A stretch of 55,124 nt of DNA from a virus (IMGVR_UViG_3300021138_000034:1-55124); one strand, 5' to 3'. Counted from the first letter of the stretch, positions 15,114-38,408 are shown. Notes: generated by a model from the letters alone, not told the origin. Program-made: numbers and translations.

Positions 15114-15578
15114 TTATAACTTTGTCCGAAGGATTACAACGGCTGATGGGAACGGCGCTGCATTCTTCTGATCTCCAAATTTCAATCGACCGCGGATGAA
15201 GCGAATATCGTGATGGATGCAGGATTCATGCCACCACCTGGTATCAGTCCTAGCAGGTACCAAAGCGACTACTGTAGAGCCTCTAGAGGCCTCCAAATCA
15301 GCTTTGGCCATCCAATCCTTGATTGTCTTGCCATAGGGCGGATTTAGCCAGATAGTGCCTCCAGCGGCATCCTCGGTCCAATTTCGTGTAAATGCGTCTC
15401 GCATAGTGGGATCAGGATGGTCAGGTCCATACCAGTTCTGGCAGAGAGCTGATGAAGCTAGAGCAGCTGCATCGAGGACAAAATCGAACTCATCATCTAG
15501 CTTGGCGAAGAATGCCTTCGGCGTGGTCCAGGTGTCATCCTCGGAGGACTTGAAAGCTTCTTCTGAATAAAATCCCAT
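15114..15578 (-). CDS. Phage DNA N6-adenine methyltransferase (Dam family)
   Basis: W.TP, F.LDAAA, NPPY catalytic motif, LVPARTDTRWWH; leaderless TAGGCT-N6-ATG. Confidence 0.92.
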   Translation of the reverse strand: MGFYSEEAFKSSEDDTWTTPKAFFAKLDDEFDFVLDAAALASSALCQNWYGPDHPDPTMRDAFTRNWTEDAAGGTIWLNPPYGKTIKDWMAKADLEASRGSTVVALVPARTDTRWWHESCIHHDIRFIRGRLKFGDQKNAAPFPSAVVILRTKL

Positions 15579-15596: not shown

Positions 15597-15698
15597 TGAC
15601 ACTTCTATACTCATTTGCGTATAGAAGTGTCAATGTATAGAAAAGGTAACCTTTGGGTACCTTTGGGTACCTTTAGCTAATTCCAGCGCGACACGCCG
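15597..15698. promoter_or_regulatory. Divergent control region: perfect 14-bp inverted repeat, three 10-bp-phased direct repeats, CGACACGCCG box
   Basis: TGACACTTCTATAC-N8-GTATAGAAGTGTCA (15597-15632); ACCTTT at 15649/15659/15669; CGACACGCCG 15689-15698. Confidence 0.7.
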
Positions 15699-15757
15699 TC
15701 TGACCTGGGGTTATGCCTGCAAACAATGTGCGCTTACTTTGGTGTACTATTTCTGCC

Positions 15758-15925
15758 ATGCCTACATATGACTTCACCTGCATCGGTTGTGATCTGACTG
15801 TCGAACGCTACTTTACGTTCCATGAAGAGCGCCGAGTTGAGTGCGATCAATGTGGGAATCAAATGCTCAAGTCGCTTACCGCTACACCTGCACATTTCAA
15901 AGGTGGCGGATGGGGTGGCCAGTAG
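15758..15925 (+). CDS. FmdB-family zinc-ribbon protein
   Basis: MPTYDFTC..C...C..CG..M.K...FKGGGW; TACTAT-N7-ATG. Confidence 0.88.
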   Translation: MPTYDFTCIGCDLTVERYFTFHEERRVECDQCGNQMLKSLTATPAHFKGGGWGGQ

Positions 15926-16062
15926 GCTACTGCTTAGCGCCGTATACCTTCAAAAAATTTTGATGCCCCCCGGCTGGGCTACTGTATAAGCCGTTATAGT
16001 CAAATCTTGCGCCGATTACCTGGAGGCCTTTGTAGATTTGTCGACATTTAACCGTGGGGGCT

Positions 16063-16078
16063 TCGAACATCTGTTCGA
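16063..16078. promoter_or_regulatory. LexA (SOS) box upstream of ardC
   Basis: TCGAAC-ATCT-GTTCGA matches the actinobacterial consensus TCGAAC-N4-GTTCGA. Confidence 0.8.
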
Positions 16079-16202
16079 GAGTGAGGGCGCTGGATTGTTA
16101 TCTAATCGTTATAAATCTACGCTCGCGCCTATTCGACACGGTGGGGGCGCTCGTGTACCTTGGACTTATAAGCGCAAAGGTTGCGCAAAGTTAGGGGTAA
16201 CT

Positions 16203-17075
16203 ATGAACCGCAGTGAAATCGAATCTCTAGTGACCAGCATGGTCACGGCACAATTACGCGAGGGGCGCGTCCCATGGCGTAAGACTTGGGCAAGCAAGGT
16301 CGGTCGACCAACCAACCTAGCCACCCGCCACCAGTACACGGGCGTTAATTGGCTCGTACTCTCTATGCAGGATGTCCCATCCCAACTATGGGTCACCTAT
16401 AAGCAAGCCCAAGCCCTAGGCGGTCAAGTCCGCAAGGGTAGCAAGGGTATCCACTGCATCAAGTACGGCACGATTGACACGGGCAAGGTCGACGCAAAGG
16501 GCAAGCCTATCCTCCGCCCATTCTTGAAGGCGTTCACCGTATTTAATGTCTCGCAGTGCGACGGGTTGACCATTCCCGCCGACTTGGTACCAGTCAAGCG
16601 CGAGACTGAGATATTGCCAGCGGTTGAGACTATGCTCGCCAACTATGCCAACCGCCCAACCGTTTACCATGGCGACTACGCAACCCCTCACTATAAGCCA
16701 ACCGAGGACACTATCCATATGCCCGAGGCTGGTCTATTCGATAGCGTCGAGGAGTACGCGACCGCGCTCGCTCATGAGATGACCCACTCGACTGGTCACC
16801 AGTCACGCGAGAATCGCGACATCATGAACCGATTCGGTTGCGAGGGATACGCCAAGGAGGAGCTAGTAGCCGAGATGGGTGCAGCCATGATGATGGTCGA
16901 GTATGGAATCGACATCGACCTCCCTAACACTGCCAGCTATCTCGCCAGCTGGTTGAAGGCTTTGAATGATGACCCAAGCCTCCTAGTTACCGCAAGTGCC
17001 AAGGCTCAGAAGGCAGTCGACCGAATGACTGGTAAGAAGGCAGTCGTCGAGGTCGAGGAGGAGGTGAGCGCCTAA
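16203..17075 (+). CDS. ardC: ArdC-family antirestriction protein (ssDNA-binding domain plus zincin-like domain)
   Basis: QLREGRVPWRKTW, YTGVN, WVTYKQAQALGGQVRKG, VFNVSQCDGL, HEMTHSTGH, YAKEELVAEMGA; start at ATG 16203 after AGGGG RBS. Confidence 0.95.
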   Translation: MNRSEIESLVTSMVTAQLREGRVPWRKTWASKVGRPTNLATRHQYTGVNWLVLSMQDVPSQLWVTYKQAQALGGQVRKGSKGIHCIKYGTIDTGKVDAKGKPILRPFLKAFTVFNVSQCDGLTIPADLVPVKRETEILPAVETMLANYANRPTVYHGDYATPHYKPTEDTIHMPEAGLFDSVEEYATALAHEMTHSTGHQSRENRDIMNRFGCEGYAKEELVAEMGAAMMMVEYGIDIDLPNTASYLASWLKALNDDPSLLVTASAKAQKAVDRMTGKKAVVEVEEEVSA

Positions 17076-17090
17076 GAGGTAAGGCGTCGA

Positions 17091-17110
17091 GCGGGGGAGC
17101 GATCCCCCGC
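17091..17110 (+). terminator. GC hairpin after ardC (no U-tract)
   Basis: GCGGGGGA-GCGA-TCCCCCGC. Confidence 0.6.
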
Positions 17111-17114
17111 GAGA

Positions 17115-17233
17115 TGTTTGTGTTGGTGCCCACCCTCCCAGCATTAAAGGAATGGAATGGAGAGATTATAACGAAATCGTTATAAAACTCTCGGCGTGTC
17201 GCTATTGGTGCTGTCGTAGGTAGGCGGTATTGT
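17115..17233 (+). repeat. Intergenic cassette element copy 1 (with promoter)
   Basis: TGTTTGTGTT, stem GGTGC/GCATT with loop CCACCCTCCCA, GGAAT, GAGAGA, TTATAACGAAATCGTTATAA, CGGCGTGTCG, TGTCGTAG-N8-TATTGT. Confidence 0.9.
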
Positions 17234-17274
17234 TCTCGGTGTTGGCAGATAGCCAGCAGATTAGGGGTAATCAA

Positions 17275-17448
17275 ATGAGCGTTAAAAAAGCGCGTAGGTC
17301 GTTAGTAGCAGGTATCTTTATGGGCGCACTAGTTGCGCTAGGTATAAATGCGGGAGTTGGTTTCTTGACTACTCATCATCAGGTCGAGTACAACTGCCAC
17401 CAAGCAGATGTCGGTTGGGAGTGCGATACTAAGTGGGTGCATAACTAA
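17275..17448 (+). CDS. Small single-TM protein (57 aa)
   Basis: AGGGG RBS, ATG 17275; hydrophobic helix. Confidence 0.7.
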   Translation: MSVKKARRSLVAGIFMGALVALGINAGVGFLTTHHQVEYNCHQADVGWECDTKWVHN

Positions 17449-17558
17449 TGGAGTGTCGTTTCTGCCAGTCCGACGGTGGTTCAGATTACTATGACGGTTT
17501 CTGCCACCTGTGTTACAAAATCATCCATCCGAGGAAAGGTAAAACAAATGTCAGTTGA
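17448..17558 (+). CDS. Tiny CxxC/CxxC Zn-binding protein (36 aa)
   Basis: MECRFCQ...FCHLCY; start overlaps upstream stop. Confidence 0.55.
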   Translation: MECRFCQSDGGSDYYDGFCHLCYKIIHPRKGKTNVS

Positions 17559-17763
17559 TACAACAAGCCCAGTCTATCCAGATGTCCATGTCCAGCTCGT
17601 TGGTCAGGACGGTAATGCGTTTGCGATCATGGGACGCGTCCAGTCAGCCCTAGAAGATGCGGGCGCAACTAAAGAAGAAATCGAGCAATATCTAAACGAA
17701 TCCATGTCAGGCGATTACGATAATCTTCTTCGTACCGCTGTGAAATGGGTGAGCGTTTCCTAA
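17548..17763 (+). CDS. Conserved phage protein (LVGQDGNAFAIMG...SGDYDNLL family)
   Basis: Recognisable motif; GAAAGG RBS. Confidence 0.85.
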   Translation: MSVDTTSPVYPDVHVQLVGQDGNAFAIMGRVQSALEDAGATKEEIEQYLNESMSGDYDNLLRTAVKWVSVS

Positions 17764-17786
17764 AGCTTAGTTACCCCTAAGACGGC

Positions 17787-17818
17787 AGCCCGGCGGGGCT
17801 TCTCTCCTGCCGGGCTTT
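17787..17818 (+). terminator. Intrinsic terminator-like hairpin
   Basis: AGCCCGGCGGGG...CCTGCCGGGCT-TT. Confidence 0.65.
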
Positions 17819-17838
17819 GCTGTGTCCGCGCGAGAAAA

Positions 17839-17958
17839 TGTTTGTGTTGGAAGCCCGCCCACCCAGCTTCAGGAATATCTAGGAGAGAGATTGTTATCAG
17901 ATTGTTATAAATGTTCCTCGGCGTGTCGGTTTGCCTAGTCGGTGGCATGGCATACCAT
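17839..17958 (+). repeat. Intergenic cassette element copy 2
   Basis: Stem GAAGC/GCTTC, loop CCGCCCACCCA; TTGTTATCAGATTGTTATAA; CGGCGTGTCG; AGTCGGTG-N8-TACCAT. Confidence 0.9.
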
Positions 17959-18002
17959 TGAGGCAGATAGCAGACGGCTATCAGTTCGAGAAAGGAACGA
18001 TT

Positions 18003-18569
18003 ATGGGTCTAGATATGTATCTAGAGGCTCGTAAGTTCGTTTCGGGATACGATTTTGCTCCCGAAGCGGATAAGCATTTGTTTAATCAGTTGAGCGAGAT
18101 TAGCCCCGCTGCTCCAAGCGTGGACTCTCCCTCTTTCCAATTAACCGTAAATATCGGTTATTGGCGCAAGGCGAACGCTATTCACGGTTGGTTTGTCCGT
18201 GAAATTGGCGACGGCGTTGATGAGTGCCAAGAAATGTATGTTCGCCGTGAGAAGTTGGCTGAACTGAAGTCTGCTCTCTTATTGGCTCTTGGTGAAAAGC
18301 CAAGCGTTGTTGCTCCTGCCTCTCAGGGTTATTCCATTAACGGCAACCCTGCCGAGGTTATCGCTGAGACTATGGTTCTAGAGGCTCACCGTGCTGAACT
18401 CAATGATGAGAGTGATACCGACCCTCTCCGTCCCGTCGGTGGTTTCTTTTTCGGTGGTACTGAGAAAGATGAGTGGTACTACCGTCAATTAGCGAACACT
18501 CTCGACATTATCGAGAAGGCGCTCGCTCTCCCAAGTACTTGGGACATTTACTATCAGGCGAGTTGGTAA
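18003..18569 (+). CDS. Conserved phage protein (MGLDMYL...YWRKANAIHGWF family)
   Basis: Signature motifs plus GFFFG...Y and YYQASW; GAGAAAGG RBS. Confidence 0.88.
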   Translation: MGLDMYLEARKFVSGYDFAPEADKHLFNQLSEISPAAPSVDSPSFQLTVNIGYWRKANAIHGWFVREIGDGVDECQEMYVRREKLAELKSALLLALGEKPSVVAPASQGYSINGNPAEVIAETMVLEAHRAELNDESDTDPLRPVGGFFFGGTEKDEWYYRQLANTLDIIEKALALPSTWDIYYQASW

Positions 18570-18853
18570 TGGCTAACTCTCAGGCTCGTGCGCTCGTCGA
18601 AAGGCGAGCGCAGGAGTGGCACAAGCGCTATTACTCTCAGTTGAACGGTGCGACCCTTGCCTTTGTTTGTATGACCGAGGATGAGTGGGGCAACCCTGAT
18701 TTCCCTACCTTCTTAGCGAAGTTCCCTGACGGTAGGACTATCCAGCTCGAAGTCTCTCGTGACCCTGAAGGAAATGGTGGCGGATTTATTTTCGGCATGG
18801 ATTTCCCTGACATGGCTGACTTTGATAAGGAAAGCGGGTTCGATAAGTTGTAA
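18569..18853 (+). CDS. Hypothetical protein (DPEGNGGGF motif)
   Basis: ATG overlaps upstream TAA. Confidence 0.75.
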   Translation: MANSQARALVERRAQEWHKRYYSQLNGATLAFVCMTEDEWGNPDFPTFLAKFPDGRTIQLEVSRDPEGNGGGFIFGMDFPDMADFDKESGFDKL

Positions 18854-18921
18854 GCGATTGGGGTTGGGAGTGATAACCAGTAACGGCGCGAGTAGCCTCG
18901 CGCGACCCCTCGCTCGCAAAA

Positions 18922-19038
18922 TGTTTGTGTTGAGCCCACCCACCCAGCTCAAATAGGAATGGATCGAGAGAGATAACGAAATTGTTATAGAAGTCGCTCG
19001 GCGTGTCGGCTGGAGATGTCGGTGCTGTCGAGTATTGT
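18922..19038 (+). repeat. Intergenic cassette element copy 3
   Basis: Stem TTGAGC/GCTCAA, loop CCACCCACCCA; ATAACGAAATTGTTAT; CGGCGTGTCG; TGTCGGTG-N8-TATTGT. Confidence 0.9.
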
Positions 19039-19094
19039 GTGGCTGTTGGTCAAACGACCAGCCCTGCTGACGGCAGGTTCAGAAAGGAAGTCCT

Positions 19095-19508
19095 ATGGGC
19101 ATAGCCCTTAAAGTTCCCAGAGCCAAAGTTTTGGTGGCTCTCAAAGACAGGCTCGTTCAGATTGAGTCTGACTACAAGCACCAAGCCAAGTATGAGGCTG
19201 ATTTCATCAAGGCTCATAAGAAGTGGCAACAAGATGTAATCAAGTTGGCTACAACCGAAGGCAAAATCCTTCCTACCGAGTGTTCGGTCTATGTCCGAGC
19301 ATACGGCACTAGCAACCAAATCAGCCTTCAGTATGAAGTGAAGAAGGAAGATTTGCCTGAAGAACCGACCCGTGATTGGGAGTCGATTAGCGACTACAAG
19401 TATCGCGAGATGCGTGATGAAATAAGCAACGCTATCCGCGTGATCGAGATGTGCGAAGATGAGGTAATCCCAGCCTCCACTCTCAAACCTTATAGCCACT
19501 ATCTATAA
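19095..19508 (+). CDS. Hypothetical protein (137 aa)
   Basis: ORF track; AGAAAGG RBS. Confidence 0.8.
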   Translation: MGIALKVPRAKVLVALKDRLVQIESDYKHQAKYEADFIKAHKKWQQDVIKLATTEGKILPTECSVYVRAYGTSNQISLQYEVKKEDLPEEPTRDWESISDYKYREMRDEISNAIRVIEMCEDEVIPASTLKPYSHYL

Positions 19509-19517
19509 GAGATAGGA

Positions 19518-19552
19518 GAAGCCCTCGCCCTTAGGAAAGGCGGGGGCTTTTT
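19518..19552 (+). terminator. Intrinsic terminator
   Basis: AAGCCCTCGCC...GGCGGGGGCTT-TTT. Confidence 0.8.
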
Positions 19553-19577
19553 CGCGCCCGCGCGGAACGCGCGGAAT

Positions 19578-19706
19578 TGTTTGTGTTGGAAAGCCCACCC
19601 ACCCTGCTTTCTGGAATACATAGGAGAGAGATAGGGATTTATAACAAAATCGTTATAAAAGACTTACGGCGTGTCGCTATTGCCTGTCGGTCTGGACGTG
19701 TAATGT
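19578..19706 (+). repeat. Intergenic cassette element copy 4
   Basis: Stem GAAAGC/GCTTTC, loop CCACCCACCCT; TTTATAACAAAATCGTTATAAA; CGGCGTGTCG; TGTCGGTC-N8-TAATGT. Confidence 0.9.
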
Positions 19707-19754
19707 CTGCTCTGTCGGGGAAACTCTTCGACTGTTCGAGAAAGGAACAAGCGG

Positions 19755-20249
19755 ATGTCTAAAAAAGACACGCTGAAAATAAAAGAGGCTTGCCTTCTTT
19801 TATTGAGCCTTGCCGATAAGTGGCAAGACGGAAAACCACTAGACCACGAGGAGATTGACCTTCTCGCGTGGGCTATCGCTGAAAATCTACAAGTGCGCGA
19901 TTACGCTATGAGCGCGCTACTTATGGACAAATTCGAGTCCGTAACTCTGACGATTGACTTCTATGACGAACTCGTTTCGCTCGTATCTGACGAATACAAG
20001 CACTCAATTCTCTCTATCCTTGCCATTCTTTGGTATGGCGCTGAGGATGACGAACTATCTGCCCGTAACCTGTCTATGGCTCTAGCCCTAAAGCCTGATT
20101 ATAAACTCGCGTTACTGGTTCAGAGAATCCACTCTGCTAACTGGCCTCACGAGGTTGTGCAAAATATGTTTAACGAACTCCACCCTACGGTGCGCGCCAG
20201 CGTGACCGAGGGCGGAGAGTATGCGGAAATGCTGGTTTCACAGGGCTAA
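19755..20249 (+). CDS. DUF4192-like helical protein
   Basis: LQVRD...W..G....AL...PDYKLA.L pattern of the actinobacterial DUF4192 C-terminus; GAGAAAGG RBS. Confidence 0.7.
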   Translation: MSKKDTLKIKEACLLLLSLADKWQDGKPLDHEEIDLLAWAIAENLQVRDYAMSALLMDKFESVTLTIDFYDELVSLVSDEYKHSILSILAILWYGAEDDELSARNLSMALALKPDYKLALLVQRIHSANWPHEVVQNMFNELHPTVRASVTEGGEYAEMLVSQG

Positions 20250-20264
20250 GTAGCCAGCGTTAGA

Positions 20265-20297
20265 GAAGCCCCCCAGCTCGTCACTGGGGGGTTTTTC
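20265..20297 (+). terminator. Intrinsic terminator
   Basis: AGCCCCCCAG-N7-CTGGGGGGTT-TTT. Confidence 0.8.
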
Positions 20298-20335
20298 ATT
20301 TGCCCTTGATCGCGCGAACGTGGGTCGCGCGAGAT

Positions 20336-20453
20336 TGTTTGTGTTGGTTGCCCGCCCACCCAGCAACTAGGAATTGAATGGAGAGACATAACGAAATTGT
20401 TATAAATGGGTACCGGCGTGTCGTGACCGGTCGCGGGCCGGATGTGGCAAGAT
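20336..20453 (+). repeat. Intergenic cassette element copy 5
   Basis: Stem TGGTTGC/GCAACTA, loop CCGCCCACCCA; ATAACGAAATTGTTAT; CGGCGTGTCG; weak -10 CAAGAT at the same spacing. Confidence 0.9.
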
Positions 20454-20478
20454 GTGTTTACTCGAGAAAGGAGTTACC

Positions 20479-20784
20479 GTGACTGGTACAGAAGGCATTC
20501 AGATAGTCGATGCGCAGCATCACTATGCAGTTCTTGAAGTTAAGAAGGAACTGAAGTTTAAATTCGATGGTCATGACTATGAGTGGACGGCATTCATTGG
20601 AGAACGTGGCTATGTCGAATATTGGAAGAGAGATGGCATATCAATTGAAGGTGGCGACACTGACGTTGAGTACCAGGTCCTGGACATGGACATGGGAGCG
20701 CTTTGGGAGGAAATCACTAATCGCAATTGCCAGCATAACCGGGCATGCGAATGTATGACATGTGGTGAGGTTCTCTATCACTGA
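20479..20784 (+). CDS. Hypothetical acidic protein with C-terminal Cys/His cluster
   Basis: GTG after GAGAAAGGAG. Confidence 0.75.
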   Translation: MTGTEGIQIVDAQHHYAVLEVKKELKFKFDGHDYEWTAFIGERGYVEYWKRDGISIEGGDTDVEYQVLDMDMGALWEEITNRNCQHNRACECMTCGEVLYH

Positions 20785-20807
20785 TGGGTCCGTCAGCCCT
20801 ATCATCG

Positions 20808-20833
20808 AGGCCCCCGGGAAACCGGGGGTCTTT
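20808..20833 (+). terminator. Intrinsic terminator
   Basis: AGGCCCCCGG-GAAA-CCGGGGGTCT-TT. Confidence 0.8.
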
Positions 20834-20846
20834 CGATTTTCGGAAT

Positions 20847-20974
20847 TGTTTGTGTTGGCCCTCCCACCCAGCATTTAAGGAATAGGAATAGAGAGAGATA
20901 CCGGCTTTATAACGAAATTGTTATAAACCATGGCCGGCGTGTCGCGATTGATTGTCCGTGGCCTCGTGTAAGTT
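20847..20974 (+). repeat. Intergenic cassette element copy 6
   Basis: Loop CCTCCCACCCA; TTTATAACGAAATTGTTATAAA; CGGCGTGTCG; TGTCCGTG-N8-TAAGTT. Confidence 0.9.
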
Positions 20975-21012
20975 GTGCCTTGCCGGAAAGGTTCCGCGCA
21001 AGAAAGGTAAAC

Positions 21013-21228
21013 ATGTCTAAAGACGAAGACATAAAGACGGAAGAGGTGACGTACCGGTTCATTACCGGCACGTGGTATTCCATCACCATTCCTAAAGAGA
21101 GAGAGGGGCAACCCGGCTACTCTCCTGAAGAGATATACAGCGCTTACTTTAATGAGGGCGCGCCTGATGACGTTAAGGTCTCAGAGGATGAAGTGGACCA
21201 TGTCTGGGAGGATGATTTAAATGCCTAG
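21013..21228 (+). CDS. Small acidic protein
   Basis: AGAAAGG RBS, ATG 21013. Confidence 0.75.
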   Translation: MSKDEDIKTEEVTYRFITGTWYSITIPKEREGQPGYSPEEIYSAYFNEGAPDDVKVSEDEVDHVWEDDLNA

Positions 21229-21430
21229 ATTCGACGTTAAGATGGTCATCGAATTCTCCGGTGAGCTCGAAGCTGATACAGCTGCCGAAGCTGAAGAAAA
21301 GGCCTGGACCTCCTGGGGTGACACGGCTGCTGCTGATATTACTTACGACGGTGTCTATTCAATTGAGGTAGACGAGATTGAAGAAGACGAAGAGGAAGAA
21401 GAGGACGATGAAGATTCAGACAAAAGCTAG
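21221..21430 (+). CDS. Small very acidic protein
   Basis: EADTAAEAEEKA motif, poly-E/D tail. Confidence 0.8.
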   Translation: MPRFDVKMVIEFSGELEADTAAEAEEKAWTSWGDTAAADITYDGVYSIEVDEIEEDEEEEEDDEDSDKS

Positions 21431-21453
21431 ATGCGTCGAATGCTCCCGCGTTT

Positions 21454-21678
21454 TTGACCTCCTTGATGAGACAGATGCTGCAGAATGGGCATACGGTCAT
21501 GACTGTGAAAGCTAAGACAGTGAGTGAGGCTCCCGGCAAGGGGGCCTCACGCCATGAGCACTATTGGATCTGTCAAGACATTCCCGGTTACTACAGCTGC
21601 AAATGCGGATTACAGAGATACTGGGATCGAAACAGGAGGCAGTACGTACTGTTCCTTGAAGACAATAGCGCCTCGTAA
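21454..21678 (+). CDS. Small His/Cys protein (HEH.W.C...C.CG)
   Basis: ORF track; start uncertain. Confidence 0.55.
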   Translation: MTSLMRQMLQNGHTVMTVKAKTVSEAPGKGASRHEHYWICQDIPGYYSCKCGLQRYWDRNRRQYVLFLEDNSAS

Positions 21679-21694
21679 GGGGCGCTATTTTTTT
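21664..21694 (+). terminator. Intrinsic terminator
   Basis: AATAGCGCCTC-GTAA-GGGGCGCTATT-TTTTT. Confidence 0.85.
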
Positions 21695-21721
21695 ATTGGA
21701 GTTTGCCTACACCCACCAAAA

Positions 21722-21862
21722 GTTTGTGTTGAAGCCCTCCCACCCAGCTTCTTATGGAATATATATAAGAGAGACGATATCGAACACGTGTTCGCCGAAC
21801 GTTTGTTCGAGAGACACGCCGGTGGCCCGGGTAGTTGACTCTGCAGCTGCCGGTGGTAAGTT
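21722..21862 (+). repeat. Intergenic cassette element copy 7 (variant with tandem SOS boxes and sigma-A promoter)
   Basis: Stem GAAGC/GCTTC, loop CCTCCCACCCA; palindrome replaced by CGAAC-N4-GTTCG x2; inverted GACACGCCG; TTGACT-N16-TAAGTT. Confidence 0.85.
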
Positions 21863-21903
21863 ACTTCTTGGCGGGACGGCCGCCACGTCGAACGTTTGTT
21901 CGA
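21780..21903. promoter_or_regulatory. Three LexA (SOS) boxes
   Basis: TCGAACACGTGTTCGC 21780-21795, CCGAACGTTTGTTCGA 21795-21810, TCGAACGTTTGTTCGA 21888-21903. Confidence 0.85.
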
Positions 21904-21922
21904 TGAGAGAGAAAGAGAAACA

Positions 21923-22456
21923 ATGACTACACAATTGAGAGAGATGAGAGAGATAGAGGTAGGCAATAGCTGCAGCTGCACCTACTGCCCTAACTGTTCT
22001 CTAGGTTCATCCGGCAATGAAGTATGCGATGAATGCCAACAACCGGTTCAGTACTCCAATGAATGCTTCGACTGCCAACCGTTTGACTGGGCCGAGGAAG
22101 AATTCGATGCTTGGGTCGATCGAGTCGGAGCTAAGCGCCTGCGTATTGATGGCCGTGCCATGGGTTGGCAGCGCCGATCCGGATACGCATACTGCGATCC
22201 AACCTGGAAGAGTTTCCTGGACCGGGTTACCTTCAATGGTGACTGGACCCTTAAGCTCAAGTTCGATGGCGATAGCTTCACCTTCAACCGGTATGGCCAC
22301 GATGAGCCCACTGGAGCTCACTTCGAAGTCTCTGTACACTTCTTCCTCCGGGACACTATGACCTTGGATCAAGCTGTCGAACACGAGATAGTCGACGAGT
22401 ATGGATGCCATATCAGCTGTGGCGAGTACTTCTATGATTGCGAGTGCAGCTCATGA
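21923..22456 (+). CDS. Cys-rich acidic protein (MGWQRRSG / HDEPTG motifs)
   Basis: ORF track; ATG 21923; several CxxC pairs. Confidence 0.8.
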   Translation: MTTQLREMREIEVGNSCSCTYCPNCSLGSSGNEVCDECQQPVQYSNECFDCQPFDWAEEEFDAWVDRVGAKRLRIDGRAMGWQRRSGYAYCDPTWKSFLDRVTFNGDWTLKLKFDGDSFTFNRYGHDEPTGAHFEVSVHFFLRDTMTLDQAVEHEIVDEYGCHISCGEYFYDCECSS

Positions 22457-22575
22457 GCGCTGGAGAGGCCTTACTCAGAGATCCCATCAATACCCGGCTT
22501 GAATGTAAGCTTTGCGGGCGCCTAGTAACCGGCGCTCGGGAAGCTATCGAGCATGAAGAGACTCATACTGCTTGA
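22453..22575 (+). CDS. 40-aa protein with classical C2H2 zinc-finger spacing
   Basis: CKLC-x12-HEETH; ATGA overlap with upstream gene. Confidence 0.65.
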   Translation: MSAGEALLRDPINTRLECKLCGRLVTGAREAIEHEETHTA

Positions 22576-22600
22576 CAAGCATCCTGATTAGTATTAATGT
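22572..22600 (+). promoter_or_regulatory. Consensus sigma-A promoter driving a non-coding region
   Basis: TTGACA-N17-TAATGT. Confidence 0.75.
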
Positions 22601-22604
22601 CTGT

Positions 22605-22701
22605 ACCGCTGGAGCGTCTTAACCTTTCTCAGCTCCAGCGGTCAGAGGCAGTAACCGTCATTACCGCCTCCGGTCTGGCAGCGAGACACCTTGCTCGCTG
22701 C
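22605..22701 (+). ncRNA. Candidate three-hairpin small RNA with anti-Shine-Dalgarno loop
   Basis: ACCGCTGGAGC/GCTCCAGCGGT around GTCTTAACCTTTCTCA; GAGGCAGTAA/TTACCGCCTC; GCAGCGAG/CTCGCTGC; immediately downstream of a consensus promoter. Confidence 0.6.
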
Positions 22702-22706
22702 AAGAT

Positions 22707-22783
22707 TGTTTGTGTTGACCCTCCCACCCCTTATCCCTTCGGGATAGGGTGATGGAGAGAGAGAAAGTCAAGGCGACACGCCG
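22707..22783 (+). repeat. Intergenic cassette element copy 8 (upstream module, degenerate)
   Basis: TGTTTGTGTTG, CCTCCCACCCC, GGAGAGAGAGA, inverted CGACACGCCG. Confidence 0.8.
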
Positions 22784-23009
22784 GAAGAGGAGGCAGCAGG
22801 TTCACGATCACTAAGTGATAGCAGTCACAGAGTGACTGGCAGGCTCTAAGAGCCAGTCAGTTAGGCTACTGCTCAGATAGTGAGACGGTGAGTCGGCTGT
22901 ACCCCCAGATTTACAGGACCTCCGGTCCAACTCCTATCTGATAACTCCGTGGAGAGAGATAGGAGAGAGAGAGACACTCTCAGCTATCCTCCTGGAATTG
23001 TCGACATTT

Positions 23010-23025
23010 TGTTCCACGTGAAACA
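23010..23025. promoter_or_regulatory. parS centromere site
   Basis: TGTTCCACGTGAAACA matches the parS consensus TGTTNCACGTGAAACA. Confidence 0.8.
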
Positions 23026-23094
23026 TTTATAACGAAATTGTTATCAAACCCCACCGGCGTGTCGTGAATAAATGTCGGTGCCTACTGGTTAAAT
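23026..23094 (+). repeat. Downstream (promoter) module of the cassette element
   Basis: TTTATAACGAAATTGTTAT; CGGCGTGTCG; TGTCGGTG-N8-TTAAAT. Confidence 0.85.
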
Positions 23095-23140
23095 GCTCTC
23101 ATGGCAACTAGGCCATAACACAGACGAGAAAGGTCTGGCG

Positions 23141-23467
23141 ATGAGCACAATTAACTATCACAAGGAAAAGTCCGAAGCTGCTGAAGCTAAGGTGAATGCT
23201 GCATGGATCAAGCTCCAAGAGTACTTCCGGGACAAGGGTGGCCTCACTGAGGAGCTAATCAAGATTTGGGTGGAAGGCACCATGGAGTCCCAGTGGCAGG
23301 GATGGCATGACTATGGCCTGATTCAGGCTAAGGAGTCTGCTGGCTGGTCCCGTCGTGACTGCCTAATCTGTGACGAGACTACTGAGCATGACTCTAATAA
23401 CCTATGCACTGTATGTCATTCATGCTCAAATTGTAAGGCGCCGGTTGGTAAGGGGGCATCGGCATGA
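23141..23467 (+). CDS. Hypothetical protein with C-terminal Zn-binding Cys cluster
   Basis: GAGAAAGG RBS, ATG 23141; three CxxC. Confidence 0.75.
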   Translation: MSTINYHKEKSEAAEAKVNAAWIKLQEYFRDKGGLTEELIKIWVEGTMESQWQGWHDYGLIQAKESAGWSRRDCLICDETTEHDSNNLCTVCHSCSNCKAPVGKGASA

Positions 23468-23658
23468 GCGTCTCACTCTATATACGGTCATGGAACCAAC
23501 AGAGCCATCTACACGCCACCGGTTGTGGGTGCAAGATTACTGACCGCTATGAGCATGTACAGGATTTCCCTACCTATGACGATTCCGTCAAGGTTTGGGA
23601 GGTAAATAACGAGCTAGGAACTATCCATCACGTATGCCTAGAGGAGGCAAAGCGATGA
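23464..23658 (+). CDS. Small His/Cys protein (HLHA.GC)
   Basis: ATGA overlaps. Confidence 0.7.
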   Translation: MSVSLYIRSWNQQSHLHATGCGCKITDRYEHVQDFPTYDDSVKVWEVNNELGTIHHVCLEEAKR

Positions 23659-23840
23659 ACGAAGAGGAGATTATCTTGGATTGGGAATATGACTATGAAG
23701 GCACCGGGATTCCGGCACCTGAAGACCGTGTTGGATTCGACTGGCATGTGAAGGTCCCTGAAGAGAATGTAGGTAATGATTGGGGACCGATCATGGCAGG
23801 AGTAGTAAAGCGCCGTTCGGCTGAGGGAGGCTCCAAGTGA
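23655..23840 (+). CDS. Small hypothetical protein
   Basis: GGAGG RBS, ATGA overlap. Confidence 0.7.
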   Translation: MNEEEIILDWEYDYEGTGIPAPEDRVGFDWHVKVPEENVGNDWGPIMAGVVKRRSAEGGSK

Positions 23841-23968
23841 AAGACCCTGAGTGGATGAGTGGCGACACGCCGTACTTCTGTGATGATTGCGGAATGCGCC
23901 ATGATGAAGAAGAATGTGCACCGGAAGAGGACCCTGACCGTCTACATGACGAGATGATGGAGGAATGA
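23837..23968 (+). CDS. Tiny acidic protein (C..CG..H...C, DPDRLHDE)
   Basis: GTGA overlap after GGAGG; manual translation. Confidence 0.6.
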   Translation: MKDPEWMSGDTPYFCDDCGMRHDEEECAPEEDPDRLHDEMMEE

Positions 23969-24195
23969 TGAAACTGAGTACCAAAGCAGGAGATATATAT
24001 GCTGAGTACGGCACCGATGATGAGGGACAGCCGTATGTCACTCTTTCGCTGGTGCCTGCCGGTCAAGAGAAGTATCGAGTCGACATGGACCTATTCGAGA
24101 AACAAGAGCTCGACGAGTTGATCCTGATTCTTCAAGATATCTCTGACCGAGTGCGTAAACAGCAGAATGCGTTGAAGGCGATTCCAAATGAGTGA
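23965..24195 (+). CDS. Small hypothetical protein
   Basis: ORF track; overlaps neighbours. Confidence 0.7.
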   Translation: MMKLSTKAGDIYAEYGTDDEGQPYVTLSLVPAGQEKYRVDMDLFEKQELDELILILQDISDRVRKQQNALKAIPNE

Positions 24196-24394
24196 CTCAC
24201 GTCGACTATCCCCTAATCGCGACCTTCGCAACCTTATAGAGTTGGCGCAAGCTCAAGGCTGGGTTGTTGAGCGCCGTAACAACAACCATCTCAAATGGAC
24301 TTCGCCTACCGGTTATGTAGTTTGGTCTGCATCCACGCCTAGCGACCGCAGAGCTCTACGCAACATTGCAAGGTATCTCAAGATAAAGGTGTAA
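24188..24394 (+). CDS. HicA-like toxin (dsRBD-like mRNA interferase family of actinophages)
   Basis: LI..A..QGW.V.R....HLKW..P.G.V...STPSD.RA..N pattern. Confidence 0.7.
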   Translation: MSDSRRLSPNRDLRNLIELAQAQGWVVERRNNNHLKWTSPTGYVVWSASTPSDRRALRNIARYLKIKV

Positions 24395-24447
24395 TACCCA
24401 TATGGGCGCGTAATGCTAAGATTGCATCCCCTACCAAAGGAGAAGAA

Positions 24448-24723
24448 ATGGAAGTCGCATTTAATCCTGAAATCCAGGACGATAACAAAGTTCGCAAGTG
24501 GCAAGTTGTGATCCACAAAGAAGATGGCAAAGGCACCGCATATGAAGCTGTCTACATGGTTCACTCCGAGTCCGGCGTTCTAACCGCTCTAGGCTGTCGT
24601 GCATTTACTTCTGTGATTCCAGCAAAGCGCTGGTTGTCATCCGTGATTGGTCACGATGTCAAGTACACAGCAAGTGCTGACCGCAAGAAGCTAATGGGGA
24701 TGACTGAGACCAAGGAAGCATAA
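24448..24723 (+). CDS. Hypothetical protein (91 aa)
   Basis: AAGGAG RBS. Confidence 0.75.
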   Translation: MEVAFNPEIQDDNKVRKWQVVIHKEDGKGTAYEAVYMVHSESGVLTALGCRAFTSVIPAKRWLSSVIGHDVKYTASADRKKLMGMTETKEA

Positions 24724-24848
24724 TGGGATTCACAGACCCTATCGTTCCCTCACCTAATTGGGAGCCAACAGATAATCGTCCGGGGCGCTCGCCTTATGAG
24801 GATGAAGAAGATGAAGAGTTCATCGAAACGGAAGAAGAGGAGGAATAA
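24723..24848 (+). CDS. Tiny acidic protein (41 aa)
   Basis: MGFTDPIVPSPNW...EDEEDEEFIETEEEEE. Confidence 0.6.
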   Translation: MGFTDPIVPSPNWEPTDNRPGRSPYEDEEDEEFIETEEEEE

Positions 24849-24850
24849 TA

Positions 24851-25033
24851 ATGGGCCAAGACATTGACCAGCCCGACCAACATATCTACGAACAAGATGG
24901 TGTTTACTATCTAGTTGATATTTGGCCTAACGGTGCAGTGCAGCTCAAGATCAAAGAAGGCGGACTGCAAGGCATATGGACAGCTGCATTGCAGGAGCTA
25001 ACTACAGAGCAGTATTACGCAGGTCTCAAGTGA
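24851..25033 (+). CDS. Small hypothetical protein
   Basis: GAGGAGG RBS. Confidence 0.7.
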   Translation: MGQDIDQPDQHIYEQDGVYYLVDIWPNGAVQLKIKEGGLQGIWTAALQELTTEQYYAGLK

Positions 25034-25245
25034 GCGAAGCAGATTACGACGCATACGCTAACAACGATGACTTTACTATTGTGCAGTCTCCTATGGACTA
25101 TAAGAAAATGCACATTGAAACCTTGGACCGACTGGTTGACCTTGCCGTTGCTCAGTACTCGAAGGACATTGAACTACTAAACCTAATCCGTACAGCTCGT
25201 GACTACGCCCTTTATCTTGAAGATAACCGGCGCATGATCGTATAA
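25030..25245 (+). CDS. Small hypothetical protein
   Basis: GTGA overlap start. Confidence 0.65.
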   Translation: MSEADYDAYANNDDFTIVQSPMDYKKMHIETLDRLVDLAVAQYSKDIELLNLIRTARDYALYLEDNRRMIV

Positions 25246-25256
25246 GAAAGGAAATC

Positions 25257-25496
25257 ATGTCAGATCAAAACATTGAGGATGCAAACGTAGTCTCAGCACC
25301 TGAAGTCAAGCACACCACCATGGTGTACATGATTGATGGCAAGAGCTTCGAAACTAGCATTCCTGCTCAAAGCTTGGTACAACACATTGCGTATAACAAC
25401 CCACGTGTTGTATCGCTCAACCGCCCAACCGGTGGCGATGTTCATCTTGTAGCTGAAAACATTAACTACATTGAGGATGTCATCGAAGAGCAGTAA
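25257..25496 (+). CDS. Small hypothetical protein
   Basis: AGAAAGG RBS. Confidence 0.75.
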   Translation: MSDQNIEDANVVSAPEVKHTTMVYMIDGKSFETSIPAQSLVQHIAYNNPRVVSLNRPTGGDVHLVAENINYIEDVIEEQ

Positions 25497-27859: not shown

Positions 27860-29308
27860 CTAGTCTTCGGTCAAATCTTTCAAAATGCGAGTAGTCTCAA
27901 CCTCATCTATAGGTTTTGGAAGCTCATTTAATACCTGAGCACGGTCTCCAAACATCCTCGTCATCCATCCAGCTCCGGCATTTTTAGCCTCAACAGTCAT
28001 CTTAATGCTGCTGCTTCCGGACAACATATCGTTGATTTTTTGCGTCAGATCAATAAGGCGATCGAGCTCTTTTGATACGTTTGGATCAGGGTATCCACCA
28101 TTGACTTGTTCGGTAAAAGCAGCGAAAGCAACTCGGTTTGACTGCAATTCTAATATCGCAGTCATGTATGCCTGAAGCTGTTCACGGGTCTTTAATTCAA
28201 TTGGAAAACTGTAAGCACAGGAGTTGTTTGCCTTAAAAGCTGGGCAATTGGCGGCGATAAAACAGGTGTTGCATTGACGGACGCTGGCGCCAGAGCTCTC
28301 GACGACAGGCACGTCTTTGATGGTGCCATCTGGGTCAAAAACCTTCTGAGTGGACATGTTAAAAACCGGCAAAACCGTCATTTCTGACGGGTCTCGGTCC
28401 ATTAATTTTCCTACCTCTAATGGCTTGTTATCAGGTACGACGAGGTCTTTTTCCGCGTAATCATCACTCGCTGGGTCTTCGAAGTTATCATATAAGTTCG
28501 CCATTTTGCTCAATTTCTCCTCAAGTCGTTGGAATGACCAGATGGCCAACTTGCAATTTTCTTTTTCGTCGTCTCCTACAATCTTATCGAAATCTAAGCC
28601 GATAGATTCGTAGATGGCCTTGTAGCGAGGACGAGCTTGAGCCTTCATAGACTTTGGATAACGAGCCAGCTTTACCCCATCCCATACGATGGTCTCACCG
28701 TGGGTCATAGGGGATATCCAAGCAAGGCTGTGTGCGGTCTCTACAGGCACCTGTCGCAGGTTATCTGGACGAGCGCAGGCGATGGCATGAAACCTTGTGC
28801 CTGACTGCGTTGTCAGGCTTCTGGTTACCCCAGCCAGCCAGGTGAATTCTTCGATACTTTCACCGGTCAACCCGATGTCTAGATAAGTATCGGCTAGGCG
28901 CCTAAGCTCGCCTTGACCTAAGTTTGGATTCCAGATCGGAAGGAACTTACCGGGTGGGCATTGAGCCCAACAGGTCTTCCTCTGTTCTTCGATGAAATCC
29001 GGGCTAAGTAGTGGGTGAGTCATTTCCGAAAACATAGCGATTCGGTCTATGTTGTCAGCTATAAACTCTTCATACTCAGCAGCTAGGCTTTCAAACTCCA
29101 GCCTATCTAGCGCTATGTTACGGGGAACGCCGGCATGGACATACAACAAAGTGTCTTCTGGAAAGTAATTTTTAAGTAAATACTTTTTGGTTTTGGGCAG
29201 CCCACGCTGCTTCAATCGCCAGTAGCTGATGCTCATATGCTTGGCATTCATAGATTCCAAAATTAGGCGATTTGATGGAACTTCTGAGCCCATAAATACT
29301 ATGTTCAA
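27860..29308 (-). CDS. Divergent tRNA-guanine-transglycosylase/DpdA-like barrel protein with C-terminal Cys cluster
   Basis: Order of motifs SYW, YEEFI, FLPIW, RFHAI, TAHSLAW...HG resembles phage TGT-like proteins; CNTC...CP...C. Confidence 0.5.
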   Translation of the reverse strand: MNIVFMGSEVPSNRLILESMNAKHMSISYWRLKQRGLPKTKKYLLKNYFPEDTLLYVHAGVPRNIALDRLEFESLAAEYEEFIADNIDRIAMFSEMTHPLLSPDFIEEQRKTCWAQCPPGKFLPIWNPNLGQGELRRLADTYLDIGLTGESIEEFTWLAGVTRSLTTQSGTRFHAIACARPDNLRQVPVETAHSLAWISPMTHGETIVWDGVKLARYPKSMKAQARPRYKAIYESIGLDFDKIVGDDEKENCKLAIWSFQRLEEKLSKMANLYDNFEDPASDDYAEKDLVVPDNKPLEVGKLMDRDPSEMTVLPVFNMSTQKVFDPDGTIKDVPVVESSGASVRQCNTCFIAANCPAFKANNSCAYSFPIELKTREQLQAYMTAILELQSNRVAFAAFTEQVNGGYPDPNVSKELDRLIDLTQKINDMLSGSSSIKMTVEAKNAGAGWMTRMFGDRAQVLNELPKPIDEVETTRILKDLTED

Positions 29309-38104: not shown

Positions 38105-38408
38105 TTACCCAATCCTCCAGAGTCTTGCCATTCTTAGCCGCTTTGCGTTTCAAGGCATTTCTTTCTCGGTGGCTCAATCCACCCCAGATACCATGCTCTT
38201 CGCTGCGCTCTTCCGCGTATAGGAGGCACTGTACACGAACTGAACACTCAGGTAAACCATCTCGGCCAAAACATACGGCTTTAGCCTGAGCTGCTATTAG
38301 TCTGTACTTGGACTTGTCTCTTGGGGGAAACCAAAGCTCGGTATCTTGCCCACGGCATTTGGACTGGTAACGCCACTTTTCTGGTCCTTCGTCTTCGAAC
38401 ACGTACAC
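38046..38408 (-). CDS. whiB: WhiB-family transcription factor
   Basis: W...KC...FP...AKAVC...C.VR.QCL.YA...HGIWGGLS.RER. Confidence 0.95.
   Translation of the reverse strand: MYVFEDEGPEKWRYQSKCRGQDTELWFPPRDKSKYRLIAAQAKAVCFGRDGLPECSVRVQCLLYAEERSEEHGIWGGLSHRERNALKRKAAKNGKTLEDWVIEEANSKAERSAEKAAGRK

Follow-up and report, generated by a model that had tools for sequence, protein, structure and literature searches.

The small accessory genes of an uncultured lake actinobacteriophage are headed by putative composite promoters. The stretch of DNA analysed, hereafter the window, is 55,124 nt long. At six sites of its rightward block, a box resembling that of PafBC (RecA-NDp) promoters precedes a putative -10 hexamer, and a box of the WhiA/WhiB2 type lies further upstream. 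We regard it as an even call that these six sites are real PafBC-type promoters and make up the inner half of composite promoters, dependent on host factors, at the head of each accessory-gene cassette.

A preliminary description had placed the six sites between 17212 and 23073, with one common spacing from box to hexamer, and all six are present in the sequence in this form. Every site reads NGTCSKNN-N8-hexamer. The hexamer fits TAnnnT in five of the six; the exception, TTAAAT, had been rightly described as an imperfect -10. The cassettes, about 120-180 nt each, are paralogous repeats. The features of the block and the phage WhiB-like gene are as follows.

15689-15698, - strand: WhiA/WhiB2-type box (reads CGGCGTGTCG on this strand); lies at the rightward block's left edge, in a divergent intergenic region.
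16064-16077, + strand: LexA (SOS) box CGAACATCTGTTCG, ahead of the ArdC-like gene; the same box type occurs at recA of the candidate host family.
16203-17075, + strand: ArdC-like gene for anti-restriction, the first large one in the rightward block (Pfam ArdcN 9.1e-26, MPTase-PolyVal 7.8e-34; PHROG anti-restriction protein 2.5e-72).
17116-17233, + strand: cassette 1; terminator U-tract GTTTGTGTTG at 17116, hairpin whose loop is C-rich, palindrome at 17168-17183; WhiA-type box 17192-17201, TGTCGTAG-N8-TATTGT (PafBC-type box 17212-17219, -10 17228-17233).
17275-17763, + strand: genes behind cassette 1; 57-aa ORF (17275-17448) and 71-aa ORF (17548-17763; PHROG 1933, function unknown).
17840-17958, + strand: cassette 2; U-tract at 17840, C-loop hairpin, TTGTTAT as a direct repeat (17891 and 17902); WhiA-type box 17919-17928, AGTCGGTG-N8-TACCAT (PafBC-type box 17937-17944, -10 17953-17958).
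18003-18853, + strand: genes behind cassette 2; 188-aa and 94-aa ORFs, function unknown; on contig G001:C195 a homologue of the former follows a promoter of the same type.
18923-19038, + strand: cassette 3; U-tract at 18923, C-loop hairpin, palindrome 18973-18988; WhiA-type box 18999-19008, TGTCGGTG-N8-TATTGT (PafBC-type box 19017-19024, -10 19033-19038).
19095-19508, + strand: gene behind cassette 3; 137 aa, no family match.
19579-19706, + strand: cassette 4; U-tract at 19579, C-loop hairpin, palindrome 19641-19656; WhiA-type box 19667-19676, TGTCGGTC-N8-TAATGT (PafBC-type box 19685-19692, -10 19701-19706).
19755-20249, + strand: gene behind cassette 4; 164 aa, DUF4192 (2.2e-07).
20337-20450, + strand: cassette 5, degenerate inner part; intact palindrome 20388-20403 and WhiA-type box 20414-20423; GGTCGCGG (20429-20436) retains GTC only and is followed, after N8, by TGGCAA (20445-20450), which is no -10.
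20848-20974, + strand: cassette 6; U-tract at 20848, palindrome 20909-20924; WhiA-type box 20935-20944, TGTCCGTG-N8-TAAGTT (PafBC-type box 20953-20960, -10 20969-20974).
21013-21678, + strand: genes behind cassette 6; ORFs 21013-21228, 21221-21430 and 21454-21678, no family match.
21722-21902, + strand: cassette 7, different inner part; LexA boxes 21781-21794, 21796-21809 and 21889-21902, inverted WhiA-type box 21812-21821 (1 mismatch); TTGACT 21835-21840, 16 nt, TAAGTT 21857-21862.
22708-23094, + strand: cassette 8, in two parts about 280 nt apart; U-tract at 22708, inverted WhiA-type box 22774-22783, palindrome 23029-23044; WhiA-type box 23055-23064, TGTCGGTG-N8-TTAAAT (PafBC-type box 23073-23080, imperfect -10 23089-23094).
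23141-23467, + strand: first gene behind cassette 8; 108 aa, no family match, with more small ORFs up to 25496.
38046-38408, - strand: phage WhiB-like gene; 120 aa, Cys cluster, GIWGG (Pfam Whib 7.1e-18, 61.1 bits, above cut-off).

Site sequence and geometry are those of the published motif, in agreement with the preliminary description. In PMC8635444, the PafBC consensus is given as tGTCgg(N10)tA(N3)T, a 22-nt motif that lacks a -35, has a nearly invariant GTC and positions its box at -28 to -23. Among the seven repeat cassettes, NGTCSK with N10 to the hexamer is found in six, and GTC is retained in all seven, the degenerate one included. One site with an imperfect -10 and one cassette without the inner part count against the PafBC reading. 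When the whole window was searched with the loose pattern GTCSK-N10-TWNNNT, no enrichment was observed (16 matches against 10.98 expected; 6 of 100 shuffles reach 16); eight of the 16 matches lie on the + strand within 17212-23094 (binomial P = 5.7e-7). These enrichment figures, like those for the upstream box below, count non-independent trials, because the cassettes are paralogous repeats. Footprinting is better evidence for the boxes than such chance statistics: the boxes are retained and both N8 spacers vary, within the window as well as across other phage contigs.

The most conserved promoter element is the upstream box. The decamer CGGCGTGTCG lies 24 nt (21-26) upstream of the -10 at all six PafBC-type sites, and the distance from box end to -10 is 21-26 nt in seven cassettes. 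Read in reverse complement, it agrees at 10 of 10 positions with CGACACGCCG, the WhiA/WhiB2 motif of M. tuberculosis. The window holds 10 exact copies and one with a single mismatch, against 2.03 expected, and none of 100 shuffles reached 11. According to PMC13473873, CGACACGCCG is the Minch motif, which includes the 8-bp WhiA and WhiB2 motif GACACGCC (CGACACGCCGn), and the recA promoter is bound by WhiA and WhiB2. Further upstream, a lineage-specific palindrome, ATAAC-N6-GTTAT, is centred near -64.5 in six of the seven cassettes. Both the upstream box and the palindrome had been missed by the preliminary description, whose PafBC reading fits the inner promoter part. As an explanation of the -26 box this reading is the best one, yet incomplete, and we hold it with about balanced confidence.

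The composite promoter recurs in at least 125 IMG/VR stretches, with 258 unique GGCGTGTCN anchors, and no element is more widespread among these related promoters than the WhiA-type box. Inverted copies of it occur further upstream in cassette 7 and in the relatives L304 and L305; according to PMC10243135, WhiA sites act in either orientation and at several distances. The phage WhiB-like protein is a candidate partner for these boxes, and 14 related promoters carry the WhiA-type box and a -10 without the -26 box. All of these observations would suit another explanation, which we consider unlikely although it is the strongest of the rivals: sigma A promoters activated through the CGACACGCCG box by host WhiA with phage or host WhiB, where TGTCGGTG is not read by PafBC but might act as a second, weak WhiA site, with CGACA in its complement, or might bind some other factor. 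It is opposed by stand-alone TGTCGGTG-N8-TAyAAT promoters on related phage contigs, which lack any WhiA-type box; on contig G001:C195, three of five assessable promoters of this kind have no other shared upstream element. Moreover, the distance from the -26 box to the -10 is invariant whereas the WhiA box moves, and the -26 box, with T ahead of GTC and GTG behind, resembles RecA-NDp rather than GACACGCC in its flanks. In 90 related promoters the box variants are TGTCGG (64), TGTCAG (11), TGTCCG (10), CGTCGG (3) and AGTCGG (2). At positions that the IMG/VR scan did not force, T precedes GTC in at least 80% and TG follows it in 50-80% (55 sequences), in agreement with the older RecA-NDp motif, tTGTCRgtg.

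The observation that a well-spaced consensus -35 is missing holds for the cassette promoters of the window. A sigma-70 scan of the window recovered no cassette promoter (8 hits against 9.8 expected), and the best -35 candidates by eye are TTGGTG with a 17 nt spacer (17206) and TTGCCT with a 16 nt spacer (17931). Among the 90 related phage promoters, TTGA at a 17-18 nt spacer is found in 24 and an extended -10 in 32; therefore, sigma A alone might suffice there. These good core elements in relatives would also be expected if the boxes were operators through which a phage or host repressor silenced otherwise constitutive promoters, an explanation that seems improbable to us. The similar boxes GTGTCG and TGTCGG on both sides of the -35 position, and the separate palindromic operator that would place the cassettes under added control, point the same way. 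However, both boxes match known activator sites at activator positions, repression alone would leave the poor -35 promoters of the window weak, and no candidate repressor was identified. That the paralogous repeats keep the boxes only through recent duplication, or as recombination handles for shuffling without any role in transcription, is very improbable, since inside the repeats neither N8 spacer nor the stretch from one box to the other is conserved, and the same boxes occur in unrelated contexts, with different flanks, on other contigs.

The accessory genes had also been proposed to be wired to a LexA-independent activator. The block contains LexA boxes as well. The rightward block holds all four exact CGAAC-N4-GTTCG boxes of the window (16064, 21781, 21796, 21889); when one mismatch is allowed, six are found against 1.22 expected, a number reached in 0 of 100 shuffles. 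They sit on two other promoters of the block and not at the six PafBC-type sites. Therefore, the block is not wired solely to the LexA-independent arm.

As candidate hosts we used a family of small-genome Actinomycetota around G001 (41 genomes, 1.0-2.2 Mb), an indirect, inferred assignment. Mycobacterium or Corynebacterium is unlikely as host, because the GC content of the window is 47% and because a recA element specific to the clade and shared by the phage indicates the small-genome family. A search of predicted host genomes for pafBC, as suggested in the preliminary description, gave adjacent PafB-PafC-like WYL pairs in 38 of the 41, as read from coordinates. One such pair carries HTH_PafC+WYL+WCX and WYL+WCX domains. 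The PafB of the family matches M. smegmatis PafB chains with E about 8e-35, with conservation of the RMFERDK stretch where the two DNA-reading arginines are located (R46/R50 in our own numbering). HTH_WhiA / WhiA was found in 40 of the 41 genomes. Upstream of recA, GTC(G/A)GTG-N8-TAnnnT was matched at 25 of 30 loci, 23 of them at a recA-proximal GTC(G/A)GTG-N8-TA(C/A)C(T/C/G)T site, and the motif also precedes DUF6504 and LysM genes. The host-family promoters at recA, DUF6504 and LysM also have -35-like TTGCC or TTGGGC, so that 'no -35' is not a strict rule in the clade. At 24 of 30 recA loci, the -10 of the LexA-box promoter is preceded, at 23-26 or 34-39 nt, by a WhiA-type box (at most one mismatch). 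All three elements of the phage block (WhiA-type box, LexA box and GTC(G/A)GTG-N8-TACCTT) are found in the family's recA control region. Across the host-family genomes, bulk enrichment was observed neither for GTCRGTG-N8-TAnnnT (164 hits against 177 for the reversed control) nor for GGCGTGTCG (187 against 184 for the control).

Under the PafBC reading, host RNA polymerase carrying the housekeeping sigma would recognise the TAnnnT -10. The contact that the poor -35 fails to give is proposed to come from host PafBC: loaded with single-stranded DNA, it would bind the TGTCGGTG box (about -28 to -21) and bridge to sigma domain 4 ('sigma adaptation'). The CGGCGTGTCG box (about -46 to -37) would be a WhiA site (GACACGCC on the template strand) recruiting WhiA with host or phage WhiB, the palindrome would be the operator of a lineage-specific regulator, and an intrinsic terminator would close each cassette unit. 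The analysis establishes the sequences with their spacing and conservation, together with the occurrence of the factors in the likely host family and of whiB in the phage. From these, we infer factor binding, activation and timing at the composite promoters, with PafBC and WhiA/WhiB acting together or as alternatives. According to PMC8635444 and PMC10243135, sigma domain 4 is engaged by both WhiB and PafBC; the two may be mutually exclusive at a promoter. Firing of the cassettes when phage DNA is sensed or attacked, as first imagined, would be pure conjecture. Overall, the arrangement suggests that the phage may time its accessory genes with host alarm and cell-cycle regulators through recA-type control boxes. 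It is possible, though doubtful, that its promoters were built from host recA parts (WhiA/WhiB2, PafBC and LexA boxes) and that phage WhiB pairs with host WhiA on CGACACGCCG. If true, these would be the first defined target sites for actinophage WhiB proteins, and a virus would read the host DNA-damage alarm and a cell-cycle activator at single promoters.

As in the PafBC promoters of Mycobacterium and other Actinobacteria, the tGTCgg box lies 10 nt upstream of TAnnnT, GTC is retained, the -35 is poor in the window and the motif is also found at recA of the candidate host family. The phage promoters differ in being virus-borne, in their very high density (six within 5.9 kb, where a host genome has about four pattern matches overall, no more than the reversed-pattern control), in being joined to an upstream WhiA-type box and palindrome, and in the usable -35 and extended -10 of many related copies. 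With the WhiA/WhiB(2) promoters (S. venezuelae sepX; M. tuberculosis recA, rpsJ, dnaB, dnaE1) they share the full match to CGACACGCCG and a recA-associated site upstream of the -35 position, on either strand and at varying distance; in contrast, the phage combines the predicted site with a PafBC-type box, and its WhiB partner may be its own. The host-family recA region has a LexA box, a PafBC-type motif and a WhiA-type box whose distance to a -10 equals that in the phage (24). There, however, the WhiA-type box belongs to the LexA-box promoter, with the PafBC-type promoter about 80 nt further downstream, whereas the phage joins WhiA-type box and PafBC-type promoter directly. The PeSL ('promoter-early stem-loop') cassettes of T4-type phages likewise place a repeated promoter and hairpin module before each small accessory gene in a plastic region, but their sequences, host factors and phage lineage are unrelated to those described here. 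Finally, sigma appropriation by T4 MotA/AsiA is an analogy drawn for PafBC in PMC8635444. In both cases a factor would substitute for the -35 contact of sigma domain 4 at phage promoters; T4 supplies its own factors and remodels sigma, whereas the boxes of this phage correspond to host factors, to which its own WhiB may be added.

Six promoters of the PafBC (RecA-NDp) type had been proposed in the preliminary description, and all six sites are found in the window, at 17212, 17937, 19017, 19685, 20953 and 23073. As claimed, the spacing is identical: at 6/6 sites, the hexamer follows the 8-mer after eight bases exactly. Their layout is that of the published PafBC consensus, tGTCgg(N10)tA(N3)T, which places the box at -28 to -23 and has no -35, and the claimed match stands (PMC8635444, excerpts). 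According to the same excerpts, the GTC of the box is almost invariant across actinobacteria, the box is read by PafB, and sigma domain 4 is contacted by PafC. Over the whole window, a loose pattern for this inner box gave 16 matches versus 10.98 expected, which is no enrichment. Eight of the 16 lie on the + strand within the 5.9-kb interval of the sites (binomial P = 5.7e-7). Because the cassettes carrying these promoters are repeats of one another, footprinting was weighted above counts. In the alignment of seven cassettes, the GTC core and the ends of the hexamer were prominent and both N8 stretches were low in information.

From 5′ to 3′, a cassette consists of a terminator, a hairpin with a C-rich loop, a GGAAT..GGAGAGAGAT element, a palindrome, about 11 nt, the outer box CGGCGTGTCG, 8 nt (range 5-10), the TGTCGGTG-type inner box, 8 nt, TAnnnT, a leader of about 25-45 nt, a Shine-Dalgarno sequence and the start codon.

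Features of the cassettes
17116-17160, 17840-17890, 18923-18972, 19579-19640, 20337-20387, 20848-20908, 21722-21775, 22708-22760: conserved 5′ cassette halves
17168-17183, 18973-18988, 19641-19656, 20388-20403, 20909-20924, 23029-23044: palindrome ATAAC-N6-GTTAT, centre near -64.5
16190-16202, 17264-17274, 17987-18001, 19737-19751, 20463-20477, 23123-23138: Shine-Dalgarno hairpins

Each cassette is opened by a GC hairpin with the U-tract ATTGTTTGTGTTG; the terminator scan called those at 19558, 20310, 20822 and 22678. After the U-tract, 7 of the 8 cassette copies form a hairpin; its 11-nt loop is C-rich (CCCnCCCACCC) and its stems covary (GAAGC/GCTTC, GAGC/GCTC, GAAAGC/GCTTTC, GTTGC/GCAAC). 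This hairpin, followed by the GGAAT..GGAGAGAGAT element, is present also in the two nearest relatives, L304 and L305. The palindrome has six exact copies; with at most one mismatch, 7 were counted versus 1.33 expected, a number reached in 0/100 shuffles. At its position, many related IMG/VR contigs (L002-L125) carry TGTGA-N6-TCACA, a CRP/GlxR-like site. Since the palindrome position differs in this way between relatives, the far-upstream putative operator seems to be swapped between phage lineages. Further downstream, the Shine-Dalgarno sequence (GGGG or GAGAAAGG) often lies inside the loop of a small hairpin (6/10 leaders, RNAfold), and the stems again covary between cassettes (GTTC/GAAC, ACTC/GAGT, CAGAC/GTCTG, GATTA/TAATC). 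The inner part of cassette 7 differs, being a TTGACT-16-TAAGTT promoter flanked by three exact LexA boxes. Two other readings were set aside by eye: an ECF-sigma reading of GGAAT-N16-GTT fits only one cassette, and the box spacing of 13-14 nt is unsuitable for an OmpR-type direct repeat.

The window is an entire IMG/VR-type virus record of 55,124 bases. It is linear, with a GC content of 47% and a CheckV completeness estimate of 57%. Its genes run leftward, except for a single rightward block (15713-25496). Pfam and PHROGs searches identified RecA, PolA, DnaB and primase, the actinobacterial domains DUF4192, DUF7455 and DUF5679, and a class II ribonucleotide reductase whose best phage match is Actinomycetia phage DSL-LC01 (73.9% amino-acid identity).

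Other genes of the window
15114-15578, - strand, Dam methylase (Pfam/PHROGs)
16203-17075, + strand, ArdC-like anti-restriction gene (Pfam, PHROGs)
27860-29308, - strand, DpdA-like queuine tRNA-ribosyltransferase homologue (PHROG 887, 1.9e-42)
38046-38408, WhiB-like protein gene (Pfam 7.1e-18), located by six-frame search

Together, the DpdA-like gene and the Dam methylase hint at DNA modification by the phage. The genes headed by cassettes are small and most have no family in Pfam or PHROGs. For a small ORF at 24188-24394 (+), one of the PHROG matches, a weak one (1.2e-4), is to a family labelled 'toxin'; families of unknown function match better. Elsewhere, a 976-aa PA14-domain ORF contains four tandem 21-nt repeats (TGTTAGGTTTTG...) at 7814-7909. 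A fourth LexA box of the window, at 16064, lies upstream of the ArdC-like gene. The window has two copies of the word TTGTCGACATTT, which includes the palindrome GTCGAC. The first (16037-16049) lies upstream of both the LexA box and the promoter of the ArdC-like gene, where the rightward block starts, and the second (22997-23010) lies upstream of the promoter of cassette 8. No match among phage records was obtained by megablast of 17000-24000. Relatives of the ArdC-like protein were found at 66 loci, with a best identity of 48%. At these loci, 15 PafBC-type motifs were counted (8 in the reversed control), clustering at the three nearest; ArdC and the promoter type therefore do not travel together.

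A scan of IMG/VR for the composite of both boxes returned at least 125 stretches, corresponding to at least 90 unique promoters. The inter-box distance in these was 10 nt in 42, 11 nt in 19, 9 nt in 13 and 5-8 nt in 16, a sharp peak that chance would not produce. The older wording of the RecA-NDp motif is tTGTCRgtg, and the positions left unforced by the scan (T before GTC, TG after) agree with it among the IMG/VR promoters listed. Its R position is occupied by G or A, with TGTCGG in 64 and TGTCAG in 11 of the at least 90 promoters. Counting against the PafBC reading, a usable -35 was present in 24/90 and an extended -10 in 32/90 of the related promoters, among the IMG/VR matches listed. The strongest sequence argument in its favor comes from C195, a 2.9-kb phage-like contig of G001 (a 1.3-Mb Actinomycetota MAG) on which a homologue of window gene 18003 is encoded. 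Three of its five assessable TGTCGGTG-N8-TAyAAT promoters have no other common upstream element and no -35; the inner box and the -10 thus form a module of their own.

The outer box CGGCGTGTCG has 10 exact copies and one with a single mismatch in the window, versus 2.03 expected with at most one mismatch (0/100 shuffles), and all are confined to 15.7-23.9 kb. Its reverse complement, CGACACGCCG, is the WhiA motif. Excerpts of PMC13473873 give GACACGCC as a motif of both WhiA and WhiB2, from ChIP-seq and in vitro work, quote Minch's motif CGACACGCCGn, and report the two proteins at the recA promoter, at ribosomal protein operons and at replication genes. In our literature search, this was the only paper whose accessible text joined WhiA with GACACGCC. 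In L304, L305 and window cassettes 7 and 8, the outer box is inverted and further upstream, with a fixed distance from inner box to -10. This matches the behaviour of the WhiA motif, which is described as found in both orientations, its distance from the -35 varying (PMC10243135, excerpts). In the IMG/VR relatives, WhiA-type boxes often adjoin TTATCCACA or TGTGGATAA words, which are DnaA-box-like (e.g. L008, L038, L041, L052, L068). Many of the IMG/VR boxes are followed by TTGACA in a small hairpin instead of a -10; among the matches listed, 154/258 unique WhiA-type boxes have no TAnnnT at 23-27 nt.

The GTDB family of G001, sampled with 41 genomes of 1.0-2.2 Mb, is the likely host of the phage. 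The evidence is indirect: a common clade-specific recA element, the phage-like contig binned in G001, and GC (0.43-0.56 at host-family recA loci versus 0.47 in the window). The preliminary description relied on a PafBC of the host, and, by our reading of gene coordinates, 38/41 genomes of this family indeed have a pair of neighbouring WYL genes, spaced by about 950 nt. No WYL gene was detected among the 99 window ORFs at E up to 1e-3. One host-family pair has the domains WYL+WCX and HTH_PafC+WYL+WCX. The family's PafB aligns to the PafB chains in the M. smegmatis RNAP complex (E ~8e-35) and keeps the stretch RMFERDK, which by our own residue count holds R46 and R50, the two arginines described as reading the GTC guanines (PMC8635444, excerpts).

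At the recA loci of the family, a LexA box was present in 30/30 and an upstream GTC(G/A)(G/A)TG-N8-TAnnnT in 25/30, 23 of these 25 matches being a recA-proximal GTC(G/A)GTG-N8-TA(C/A)C(T/C/G)T site. At L194 and L195, the proximal box stands 9 nt from TACCTT and the match is a distal site upstream of the LexA box. PafBC-type promoters also precede a DUF6504 gene of a mutasome-type cassette and LysM genes (L266, L267, L269), with a LexA box directly after; these genes look doubly controlled. Over the 41 genomes, the PafBC-type pattern was not enriched (164 versus 177 in the reversed control, summed tables). The PafB/PafC pairs and the motif at recA thus indicate that the family has the factor and uses the motif, sparingly.

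WhiA is present in 40/41 genomes of the family. The 9-mer GGCGTGTCG lies upstream of the LexA-box promoter in 24/30 recA loci (at most one mismatch; 12 exact), its end being 23-26 nt from the -10 at 11 loci and 34-39 nt from it at 13. These two clusters, with modes at 24-25 and 34-35, are about 10 nt apart; in the phage, five cassettes have a distance of 24, and the remaining two have 26 and 21. Other exact copies precede nrdR, rpsL and a DUF6504 gene, and over the 41 genomes GGCGTGTCG was not enriched (187 versus 184 in the control, summed tables). Outside the family, GCGTGTC was found upstream of recA in 0/27 readable loci, with 360 nt shown for each (27 of 29 non-G001 loci returned from a phylum sample of 61 genomes). 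No conclusion drawn here depends on three genomes flagged as unpublished.

The outer box was also considered as a general part of host PafBC promoters. This was rejected, the excess over controls being only 1.6- to 2.6-fold: the composite gave 34 stretches in genome_contigs, versus 21 with the box 10 nt further away and 13 with the box reversed. Many of the 34 come from high-GC actinobacteria, upstream of uvrA, exonuclease or HNH-type genes. In view of the shifted-box and reversed-box controls, the likeliest explanation is that a GC-rich 9-mer overlaps true PafBC promoters by chance.

The host recA control region unites a WhiA-type box, a LexA box and a PafBC-type promoter, and the phage block looks like a rearranged copy of it. 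PafBC is activated by single-stranded DNA (PMC11804915, excerpts). Host PafBC, once so activated, would replace the missing -35 contact at the phage promoters, WhiA with a WhiB would act from the upstream box, and ATAAC-N6-GTTAT would serve as an operator. On sigma domain 4, PafBC and WhiB may represent alternative modes. Firing of the cassette genes upon attack on phage DNA, as suggested in the preliminary description, may be possible.

Our literature search found no paper on phage promoters built on PafBC or WhiA/WhiB sites, and none joining PafBC with actinophage or early promoters. A 2025 study by Rafique reportedly deals, from its title, with pafBC and mycobacteriophage resistance. WhiB genes are common in actinophages; in the accessible text of the survey of their distribution, the phrases 'promoter', 'binding motif', 'binding site' and 'target genes' do not occur (PMC8612146). 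If the reading proposed here is true, phage WhiB gains a testable job, and a clade-specific recA promoter element common to phage and host provides a sequence-based host link. PafBC and WhiA/WhiB are described in the literature as regulators of host genes; abundant lake phages would then time anti-defence and accessory genes by the host's single-stranded DNA sensing and its cell-cycle activator pair.
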